From a virus: a stretch of DNA of 15,785 nt. Position numbers and translations under genes: made by a program. Numbering within the stretch: the stretch's first letter is position 1; every line of letters starts with the position of its first letter. The stretch lies in the IMG/VR virus record IMGVR_UViG_3300030706_000110, one strand, 5' to 3'. The notes under the pieces were generated by a model. That model was not told the DNA's origin. It did no database searches and saw only the letters and a program-made list of their open reading frames with translations. Below are positions 14,619-15,258 of the stretch, in pieces.

Positions 14619-14843
14619 TTAGCTTTTGTAGCTACGTTGTAGCCCGCCGTCAAGACCGTCAAGACTCACTTTCAACCGCATCGCGTGACGGATCCACTCC
14701 GAGACCGTAGTGAAATTAGCTTTCTGTGCCGCGCACTGCCACTTCTCCCACTCGTCCTCCGAGACGCGGACCCTCACGGTGTGATCGAGGTTCGCTCTCC
14801 CGCTCTTGGGCTCGCTCTTGGGCTCTTTAGCCTTCTTCCGCAT
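14619..14843 (-). CDS. Ribbon-helix-helix-like (MobC/CopG-type) small DNA-binding protein, about 74 aa. The track ORF extends to a GTG at 14906.
   Basis: Basic N-terminal tail, then HTVRVRVSEDEWEKWQCAAQKANFTTVSEWIRHAM, which resembles an RHH beta-strand followed by two helices. The start is ambiguous: ATG 14843 has no SD, and GTG 14906 has a GAGGG 8 nt upstream. Confidence 0.5.
   Translation of the reverse strand: MRKKAKEPKSEPKSGRANLDHTVRVRVSEDEWEKWQCAAQKANFTTVSEWIRHAMRLKVSLDGLDGGLQRSYKS
14624..14643 (+). promoter_or_regulatory. Copy 1 of the 20-bp motif TTTTGTAGCTACGTTGTAGC (two TTGTAGC heptads 11 bp apart)
   Basis: Exact duplicate of 14923-14942. It lies 6 nt upstream of the secreted-protein start and inside the 3' end of the RHH ORF. 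Confidence 0.55.
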
Positions 14844-14845
14844 GC

Positions 14846-14865
14846 GCCACAACGTAGCCACAAAA
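14846..14865 (-). promoter_or_regulatory. Copy 3 of the 20-bp motif in inverted orientation, with 2 mismatches (TTTTGTGGCTACGTTGTGGC on the minus strand)
   Basis: Read by eye. It lies directly upstream of the candidate ATG 14843 of the RHH gene. Confidence 0.5.
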
Positions 14866-14922
14866 ATACCGCCCCGCAAGACCCGGCTCGAGATAATTGC
14901 CCGCACCCCTGGCGCCCTCAGA

Positions 14923-14942
14923 TTTTGTAGCTACGTTGTAGC
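14923..14942 (+). promoter_or_regulatory. Copy 2 of the 20-bp motif TTTTGTAGCTACGTTGTAGC, in the divergent promoter region. It is followed by the perfect inverted repeat GACCGCAAAGCGGTC (~14949-14963).
   Basis: Exact 20/20 match to copy 1. It sits about 40 nt upstream of the plus-strand gene start at 14980. Confidence 0.55.
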
Positions 14943-14979
14943 TCGACAGACCGCAAAGCGGTCAGGAAAGACGGAAAAC

Positions 14980-15258
14980 ATGATCATCCAGAAAGCATTC
15001 CTCGCCCTCGCCATGGTGGCAGGCGTCTCGGCAGTCACGCTCACCCCCGCCGTCGCGGAGGCTCGAGGCGGCCATGGCGGTGGCCACTTCAGTGGCGACC
15101 ATTCCAGCAGCGCCCATTACGGCGCAGGTCACTCTTACGGCGGGCACTACGGCTATCGCACTCCCTACGGCTACGGCTACCGTCCGTACTTCAGCGGCTG
15201 CGCGTACGTGACGGCGTGGGGTCAGTGCGTCCGGCCAGGCTACCGATACGGCTGGTAA
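14980..15258 (+). CDS. Secreted Gly/His/Tyr-rich small protein, 92 aa precursor, with a signal peptide (MIIQKAFLALAMVAGVSAVTLTPAVAEA) and two Cys near the C-terminus
   Basis: In frame within track ORF 14806..15258. An AGGAAAGACGGAAAAC RBS region precedes the ATG at 14980. The part of the ORF upstream of 14980 has no protein-like character. Confidence 0.65.
   Translation: MIIQKAFLALAMVAGVSAVTLTPAVAEARGGHGGGHFSGDHSSSAHYGAGHSYGGHYGYRTPYGYGYRPYFSGCAYVTAWGQCVRPGYRYGW

Follow-up and report, generated by a model that had tools for sequence, protein, structure and literature searches.

Small repressors of the ribbon-helix-helix (RHH) class, such as Arc and Mnt of phage P22, plasmid omega and CopG, shut off divergent or early promoters by binding tandem or inverted sub-sites spaced about one helical turn apart. 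Among the RHH proteins of toxin-antitoxin modules, RelB dimers bind adjacent operator sites cooperatively, and BrnA is an autoregulator (PMC11980606). Here we analyse a stretch of viral DNA of 15,785 nucleotides (IMG/VR record IMGVR_UViG_3300030706_000110; hereafter the window, positions being those of the whole stretch) that carries a gene for a 74-aa RHH protein with three 20-bp repeats placed around and within it. We consider it likely that this protein is a toxin-less repressor and that the three repeats are its predicted operators, each built into a core promoter.

Like the RelB/DinJ operators (relO and dinJ of E. coli), the sites in the window are TGTA[AG][CT]-class hexads repeated at ~11 bp over a predicted core promoter, and an R-x-R ribbon strand goes with TGTAGC. 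Unlike RelB/DinJ systems, the window system is devoid of a toxin gene, a toxin-binding tail and conditional cooperativity, and it has three operators for three promoters instead of one. BrnT/BrnA promoters contain the identical 18-mer core of the repeat, there in the spacer of TTGACG/TTGCAA-17-TACAAT or TTGACT-17-TATATT, but the RHH domain of BrnA is C-terminal, toxin-paired and equipped with a T-I-R-L-D strand rather than R-x-R. Two solo NikA-like RHH proteins (loci L129 and L137) share with the window protein the R-x-R strand, an exact 18-mer facing a divergent gene, a leaderless RHH gene and a 94% profile match (hhalign of the window family to the protein of L137); they differ in their neighbours, which are an IS1595 transposase or a SWIM-domain protein instead of phage-like genes. 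Arc/Mnt, omega and CopG resemble the window protein in being small RHH proteins, and Arc and CopG are among its structural matches. However, they have no detectable sequence relationship to it and their operator sequences differ; omega, for example, binds contiguous 7-bp heptads, unlike the 11-bp phasing seen here.

Results

Three phased repeats at a small RHH gene

The gene and the three sites are as follows.

14619..14843, minus strand: predicted RHH repressor gene, 74 aa, with ribbon strand T22-V-R24-V-R26-V and helices at residues 29-41 and 47-61
14624..14643, minus strand: site A (O_A), reading GCTACAACGTAGCTACAAAA in gene orientation; its DNA specifies the final RHH residues LQRSYKS and occupies both the spacer and the -10 box of predicted promoter P_A
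14846..14865, minus strand: site B (O_B), TTTTGTGGCTACGTTGTGGC, ending 2 nt ahead of the RHH ATG; its motif-2 nt-ATG arrangement matches that of dinJ in L013
14923..14942, plus strand: site C (O_C), facing the divergent peptide gene, with a -10-like TACGTT at 14932-14937 and a possible weak -35 box, CTGGCG, at 14909-14914

A first-pass annotation of this DNA had reported three repeat copies, and all of them were located. The sequence TTTTGTAGCTACGTTGTAGC occurs exactly at 14624-14643 and 14923-14942 on the plus strand, and the inverted copy at 14846-14865 on the minus strand differs at two positions, both A-to-G changes. The number of 20-bp copies expected by chance was 0.00, no match being obtained in any of 200 shuffles. 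Every copy contains two heptads whose starts are 11 bp apart, as had also been claimed, in the form TTGTRGC. The heptad TTGTAGC itself occurs five times in the window against 0.52 expected, and four of the five lie inside the three sites. The final seven codons of the RHH gene overlap site A, which stops 5 nt short of the ATG (14618) of a gene for a 117-aa secreted protein; this agrees with the earlier statement that one copy lies just ahead of a secreted-protein start. The distance from the end of site C to the peptide ATG is 37 nt.

The annotation had also suggested searching for the motif beyond the locus and had raised a dispersed, REP-like repeat as a competing possibility. No further copies were found in the remaining window or in ~28 kb of the same element (L017-L022, L026). 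As the three sites are the only ones in ~28 kb, the element's repeat is not dispersed. A REP-like element is not supported, given this count and the finding that genome and metagenome matches are each single-copy.

The encoded protein has an RHH fold and lacks antitoxin features

Comparison with relatives places the start of the RHH gene at the ATG at 14843. The 95-aa open reading frame from a GTG, proposed by gene callers, is not conserved in relatives; it was dropped because the N-terminal extension is closed there by a TAG that lies in frame within site B, two codons ahead of the ATG. An AlphaFold2 model of the monomer contains an extended segment (residues 21-28) followed by the two helices, with a predicted local distance difference test score of 85-96 in the core. 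All top Foldseek matches were RHH proteins, with root-mean-square deviations of 1.2-2.5 Å over ~40 residues, and E-values above 0.4 for this very small domain. As modelled, the 74-aa protein has RHH topology and belongs by fold to the MetJ/Arc/CopG superfamily.

The nearest curated family is the NikA-like family of Pfam (PF21983), against which the window protein scored 23.4 bits (cut-off 27), and 11 of 16 members of its own family matched at E <= 0.01. The nearest solved sequence is NikA (2ba3, E = 0.026), and a search of PDB sequences with a 3-sequence RHH profile gave spurious designed-repeat matches only. The family is tiny (24 representatives among 1.84 billion), and all its members are short solo proteins. 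For the RelB/DinJ family (TIGR02384 / PF04221) there was no NCBIfam match above the curated cut-off, and hhalign of the window family to a DinJ alignment gave 21-29%. The protein ends ~13 residues past helix 2, without a C-terminal toxin-binding tail. Because the RelB/DinJ profiles failed and both a toxin-binding tail and a toxin neighbour are lacking, we conclude that the RHH protein is not an antitoxin. A toxin-antitoxin pair made up of the RHH protein and a downstream 'toxin' was likewise rejected, the downstream neighbour being secreted and in no known family.

The sites are conserved as DNA

The RHH proteins of two related lineages, L024 and L025, are 72% and 80% identical to that of the window, and the three-site layout, C(-) B(+) A(-), is kept in both with respect to positions and orientations. 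Across the three lineages 17 of 20 columns are invariant in site B and likewise in site C, compared with 34 of 96 other intergenic columns. All three lineages have the same DNA at site A, although it is read in another frame in the relatives (P0002, P0003): the window protein ends in ...GLQRSYKS and the relatives' proteins in ...SYNVATKTK and ...SHNVATKAK. Preservation of the same DNA across a change of reading frame indicates that site A is selected as DNA and not as peptide. At 14648-14665 a 9-bp sequence is perfectly duplicated in tandem (two copies of CGTCAAGAC on the plus strand, GTCTTGACG on the gene strand), which doubles a -35-like TTGAC together with Leu-Asp codons and goes with the C-terminal frame change relative to L024 and L025.

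In the wider RHH family, GTAGC repeats were present in 6/6 lineages with an [R/K]-x-R strand and in 0/3 others. A relative with a Q-x-R strand (P0012) is encoded in a translationally coupled sugar operon with no operator. At L097, one of these three others, positions 420-500 just past the stop of the distant relative (T-N-R strand) hold a different array with ~11-bp period in which AAACGGTG is repeated four to five times, which suggests that operator specificity has shifted there.

Predicted core promoters at all three sites

Promoters were called by relaxed hexamer scoring at fixed geometry upstream of start codons, with a background control; hexamers were scored out of 12 against the sigma-70 consensus. 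Two of the predicted promoters are laid out as follows:

14625..14653, minus strand: P_A, predicted promoter of the 117-aa gene and the genes downstream; -35 TTGACG at 14653-14648, 17-nt spacer, -10 TACAAA at 14630-14625, 6 nt, ATG at 14618
14851..14879, minus strand: P_B, predicted promoter of the RHH gene itself; -35 TTGCGG at 14879-14874, 17-nt spacer, -10 TACGTT at 14856-14851, 7 nt, ATG

P_A scored 9/12 in the window and 9-10/12 at the same geometry in 7/7 RHH lineages, whereas just 1.4% of the ATG triplets in these loci reach 9/12. The gene that follows the RHH gene has TTGAC[ACG]-17 nt-(-10 box)-6/7 nt-ATG at its start in all seven lineages; the form in L024 and L025 is TTGACA-17-TACAAA-6-ATG, and the layout recurs in four distant RHH relatives (L091-L094, 31-52% identity). 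The -35 box of P_A is made of the conserved C-terminal Leu-Asp codons of the RHH gene, CTT GAC, and spacers of the P_A type hold GTAGC-type repeats with an 11-bp period (ACGTGGCCCTAACGTAGCC in L092, for example). Site A thus takes up the spacer and -10 box of a predicted, apparently leaderless promoter inside the RHH gene.

P_B is weak (6-7/12), with the form TTGCGG-17-TACGTT/TACGAT-7-ATG across lineages. Its geometry and the block TCTTGCGG are invariant in the window, L024 and L025, and the same design is found in L091, L092, L094, L129 and L137 and at dinJ of L013. The RHH mRNA transcribed from P_B would probably be leaderless, as no Shine-Dalgarno sequence is present. At the peptide gene, the -10 box would be the TACGTT/TACATT of site C, next to a poor -35 box, and P_C (6-7/12) is a weak, inferred assignment. 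From their hexamers and positions, P_A, P_B and P_C are all putative promoters.

The same 18-mer lies in RHH promoters elsewhere

A scan of GTDB, with one genome per species, yielded 16 exact copies of the 18-mer core. This is about equal to the ~17 copies predicted by a uniform-composition estimate; nevertheless, the contexts of these copies are non-random. Five of the loci (L003, L006, L008, L013 and L016; from Rhodoferax, Caulobacter, Novosphingobium and Sulfobacillus) carry it in the promoter region of a RelB/DinJ-type antitoxin with a YafQ/RelE toxin. On TIGR02384 (cut-off 45.65) the four antitoxins tested (L003, L008, L013, L016) reached 63-79 bits, and curated cut-offs were also exceeded by the three toxins tested at these loci. 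In Novosphingobium (L013) the dinJ promoter, TTGACT-16-TACGTT-7-ATG, has the P_B design. Six further copies lie between mutS2 and a BrnT/BrnA module in Acidobacteriota, where the cassette TTGCAA-aata-GCTACAACGTAGC-TACAAT is a promoter with the site in its spacer. A metagenome scan returned 40 single-copy matches, 24 of them at most 400 bp from BrnTA (18) or DinJ (6). The motif is used in three ways: forward with a TACGTT -10 box, reversed with a TACAAT -10 box, and as a whole spacer. In the dinJ promoter of E. coli, TTGAGCTACAA adjoins a LexA box.

Solo NikA-like proteins form the third group. Those of L129 and L137 pass PF21983 (35.8 and 28.0 bits), and besides the exact 18-mer facing the divergent gene both loci have a second site, TTGACG-17-TACGAT/TACATT-6/7-ATG, before the RHH gene. 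Judged by this layout, they are the closest relatives of the module, with the same B+C design. The exact 18-mer is therefore common to three RHH groups (RelB/DinJ, BrnA and solo NikA-like) in several phyla. A literature search on the motif string gave nothing relevant.

Several arrangements at these loci are recorded as observations. In six Acidobacteriota species (L002, L009, L010, L012, L014 and L015), three phased hexads (GTTGCA-aaata-GCTACA-acgta-GCTACA) come right after the mutS2 stop (3700-3745 in L002) and 77-210 nt upstream of brnT, the site being exact and its flanks diverged. In Caulobacter L008 (944-1581), the DinJ-like and YafQ-like genes are divergent and form no operon, with the 18-mer in the shared intergenic region. 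Motifs stretched to at least three phased heptads, such as TTGTAGCTACGTTGTAGCTGCGTTGTAGCTACAA, were seen at L104 (~1945), L098 (~936), L100 (~1699) and L004 (~4560-4630), with no annotated RHH gene within reach.

Ribbon-strand residues go with the type of hexad

A set of 61 RelB/DinJ-family loci from viral contigs, chosen without reference to the motif, provided 45 distinct upstream regions. The 100 nt ahead of the RelB/DinJ gene contained 1.27 TGTA[AG][CT] hexads, compared with 0.14 in controls (Mann-Whitney p = 1.9e-33), and two or more hexads were present in 42% of these regions and in 1% of controls. Strands of the VRARI type (R-x-R) pair with TGTAGC, TGTGGC or TGTAGT (42 hexads at 22 loci, with zero TGTAAT), and VQ[AT]RID strands (Q-x-R) pair with TGTAAT. 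The window protein, with its strand T-V-R-V-R-V, has sites that use TGTAGC and TGTGGC. Hexads of the TGTA[AG][CT] class lie on its own predicted promoter, and its strand residues fit the hexad type. Sharing of the 18-mer yields, in this way, a simple recognition rule from ribbon strand to hexad.

Neighbouring genes and a lineage-specific palindrome

Three further features adjoin the RHH gene and its sites.

14265..14618, minus strand: gene for a 117-aa protein with a signal peptide, the first gene downstream of P_A
14949..14963, plus strand: perfect palindrome GACCGCAAAGCGGTC, a lineage-specific hairpin in the 5' untranslated region of the peptide mRNA
14980..15258, plus strand: divergent cargo gene for a 92-aa secreted, Gly/His/Tyr-rich peptide with a C-terminal Cys loop, an orphan family

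The divergent secreted-peptide gene described in the first-pass annotation is present, with its start at 14980. The peptide has GHYGYR-like repeats and a C-terminal C-x8-C loop, and no match to it was found in Pfam or PHROG. Its one distant homolog (48% identity; L095 3001-3309) is on another phage-like contig that has neither the RHH gene nor the motif, indicating that the peptide is separable cargo. For the 117-aa protein, searches of Pfam, phage families and PADLOC revealed no toxin, defence or Pfam family. PADLOC and Rfam searches gave no matches.

Folded as RNA, the palindrome gives -9.8 kcal/mol (z = -2.84). It had been noted previously as a perfect inverted repeat and as part of the operator system. 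Its presence was confirmed; its assignment to the operators was not, since it is inside a 22-nt insertion that L024 and L025 do not have, and it therefore falls outside the conserved switch.

The element and its possible host

The window belongs to a phage-like element of at least 65-70 kb that is represented by many metagenomic contigs. An index lists the 117-aa protein in 43 blocks, and the peptide occurs on 31 contigs, the longest of 70,369 bp. A contig of 65,388 bp carries small, overlapping genes that run in one direction, with the peptide gene alone on the other strand. An AAA ATPase and the RtcB protein of the element match phage protein families. A megablast search of phage and plasmid collections with the entire window gave no match, nor did a search of IMG/VR with the motif and the RHH protein. 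Other genes identified in the window are listed below.

894-1913, minus strand: SET-domain protein
10019-10816, minus strand: phosphoribosyltransferase
10937-11533, minus strand: weak SWIM-zinc-finger-like protein
11419-12843, minus strand: RtcB RNA ligase
13541-13963: PadR-family regulator, three genes downstream

An 870-aa protein encoded at 6062-8674 (minus strand) contains major-vault-protein shoulder and vault-repeat domains (PF11978 at 1.5e-29, PF17795); it is encoded amid the small genes of the phage-like array, and PHROG gave no match to it. SWIM-domain proteins are divergent neighbours of the 18-mer in L125 and L137 too. The independent contigs L017, L020, L021 and L022 end at the same point, ~8.4 kb past the RHH gene and outside the window; this position could be a genome end, a repeat or a hypervariable boundary.

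By tetranucleotide usage the element is nearest to Acidobacteriaceae/Terracidiphilus loci (r = 0.71-0.83), followed by Caulobacter (0.70) and one Terracidiphilus locus (0.68), with the remainder below 0.5. The nearest Acidobacteriaceae carry the identical site upstream of brnTA. We regard this as weak evidence for a link between the element and host toxin-antitoxin modules.

Discussion

The first-pass annotation had offered two interpretations of the repeats: an autoregulatory operator array and an iteron-like partition site. Support for the former comes from conservation of the sites, retention of site A as DNA through a frame change, overlap with predicted promoters, occurrence of the 18-mer in RHH-antitoxin promoters elsewhere, and the fit between strand residues and hexads.

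In the mechanism proposed here, the repeats, their conservation and their placement at start codons and promoter-like hexamers are observed; RHH binding, its stoichiometry, the transcription starts and the direction of regulation are inferred. Each operator offers two TGTRGC half-sites 11 bp apart and would therefore accommodate two RHH dimers on one face of the DNA, with Arg24 and Arg26 of the beta-ribbon reading the major groove at the hexads. Pairs of dimers on the sites would shut RNA polymerase out of P_B, P_C and P_A. O_B, over the spacer and -10 box of the weak, leaderless P_B, would provide negative autoregulation, and O_C would cover the -10 box of the divergent secreted-peptide gene. 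O_A would act from inside the last repressor codons, within the stronger internal promoter that is predicted to drive the genes for the 117-aa protein, a membrane protein and PadR, among others. With the repressor building up, all three promoters would be turned off. Transcription coming from upstream runs into the convergent peptide gene, so that P_B and P_A probably serve to start the downstream block afresh. The RHH protein would in this manner limit its own level, the secreted peptide and the downstream block.

Several findings weigh against this proposal. The window protein falls under every curated family threshold, and its profile similarity to RelB/DinJ is slight. A strict sigma-70 scan found no promoter within 14300-15350: the -10 box of P_A lacks the final conserved T, by which it escapes that scan, and P_B and P_C fit the consensus poorly. 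The spacing between sites A and B varies (222, 174 and 186 bp), and because it is not conserved, looping between them cannot be argued; we do not propose it. Finally, PadR or a host antitoxin could occupy the sites.

This last point can be extended into an explanation in which the sites are bound mainly by another protein, either a host antitoxin of the BrnA/DinJ type or the PadR regulator encoded at 13541-13963, and the RHH protein is incidental or one ligand among others. The identical 18-mer does serve BrnTA and DinJ-YafQ promoters, PadR is kept near the module in L024 and L025, and the tetranucleotides of the element are nearest those of Acidobacteriaceae with the same site upstream of brnTA. 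Yet the sites accompany the RHH family in lineages without PadR (L091-L093, L129, L137), strand residues covary with repeat type, and PadR operators are usually inverted repeats of another type; we consider this explanation unlikely. That the motif is simply a shared promoter sequence, recognised by one kind of sigma factor or by a phage RNA polymerase and not bound by a repressor, would account for the -10-like hexamers in each copy (TACGTT forward, TACAAA reverse). We think it very unlikely, as the motif is used in both orientations with differing -10 hexamers and as pure spacer in some BrnTA loci, has the two-fold and direct-repeat symmetry typical of RHH operators, and is common to phylogenetically remote hosts, which argues against a specialised polymerase.

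Proposals that place the RHH protein in DNA maintenance or transfer are the least probable. RHH centromere-binding proteins that act on short repeats exist, and repeats phased by one helical turn would suit a ParG/omega-type protein at centromere-like or iteron sites for partition or replication. The partition site of the first-pass annotation nevertheless finds little room here: there is no ParA, ParM or Rep gene in ~28 kb around the locus, and instead of a clustered array there are just three dispersed sites, every one of them linked with a start codon and promoter hexamers. Nor is there an AT-rich region (the GC content of 14501-15000 is 0.59), and elsewhere the motif lies in toxin-antitoxin promoters. 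Just as improbable, in our estimation, is a NikA/MobC-type relaxosome accessory protein with the repeats as part of an oriT. It draws on NikA as the nearest Pfam family and nearest solved sequence, and on L111 and L136, where the 18-mer lies ~150 nt upstream of a MobC-relaxase fusion. Against it, the genes called over ~28 kb include no relaxase or coupling protein, the window protein stays under the NikA-like cut-off, and in every lineage the sites fall on promoters and start codons.

We therefore retain the toxin-less repressor acting on three promoter-embedded operators as the favoured explanation. It amounts to a compact switch in a phage-like element (uncultured, at least 65 kb), for which three promoters, their operators and the reading residues are predicted and directly testable. 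As a switch it is sound but fairly ordinary. Two aspects go beyond the routine: 1) the repressor gene holds, within its final codons, a promoter and operator that were kept through a frame change, in 7/7 lineages; and 2) one 18-bp operator is found at 100% identity across three RHH groups, which raises element-host cross-regulation as a testable possibility. The operators of the element are exact copies of a chromosomal RHH toxin-antitoxin operator, including that of brnTA in Acidobacteriaceae, the likeliest hosts, and it is conceivable, if rather unlikely, that this links both into one network. If so, host antitoxin levels would gate the three promoters of the element, making them a switch that senses stress or infection; in the other direction, a toxin-less phage RHH protein would occupy host toxin-antitoxin operators and manipulate them.

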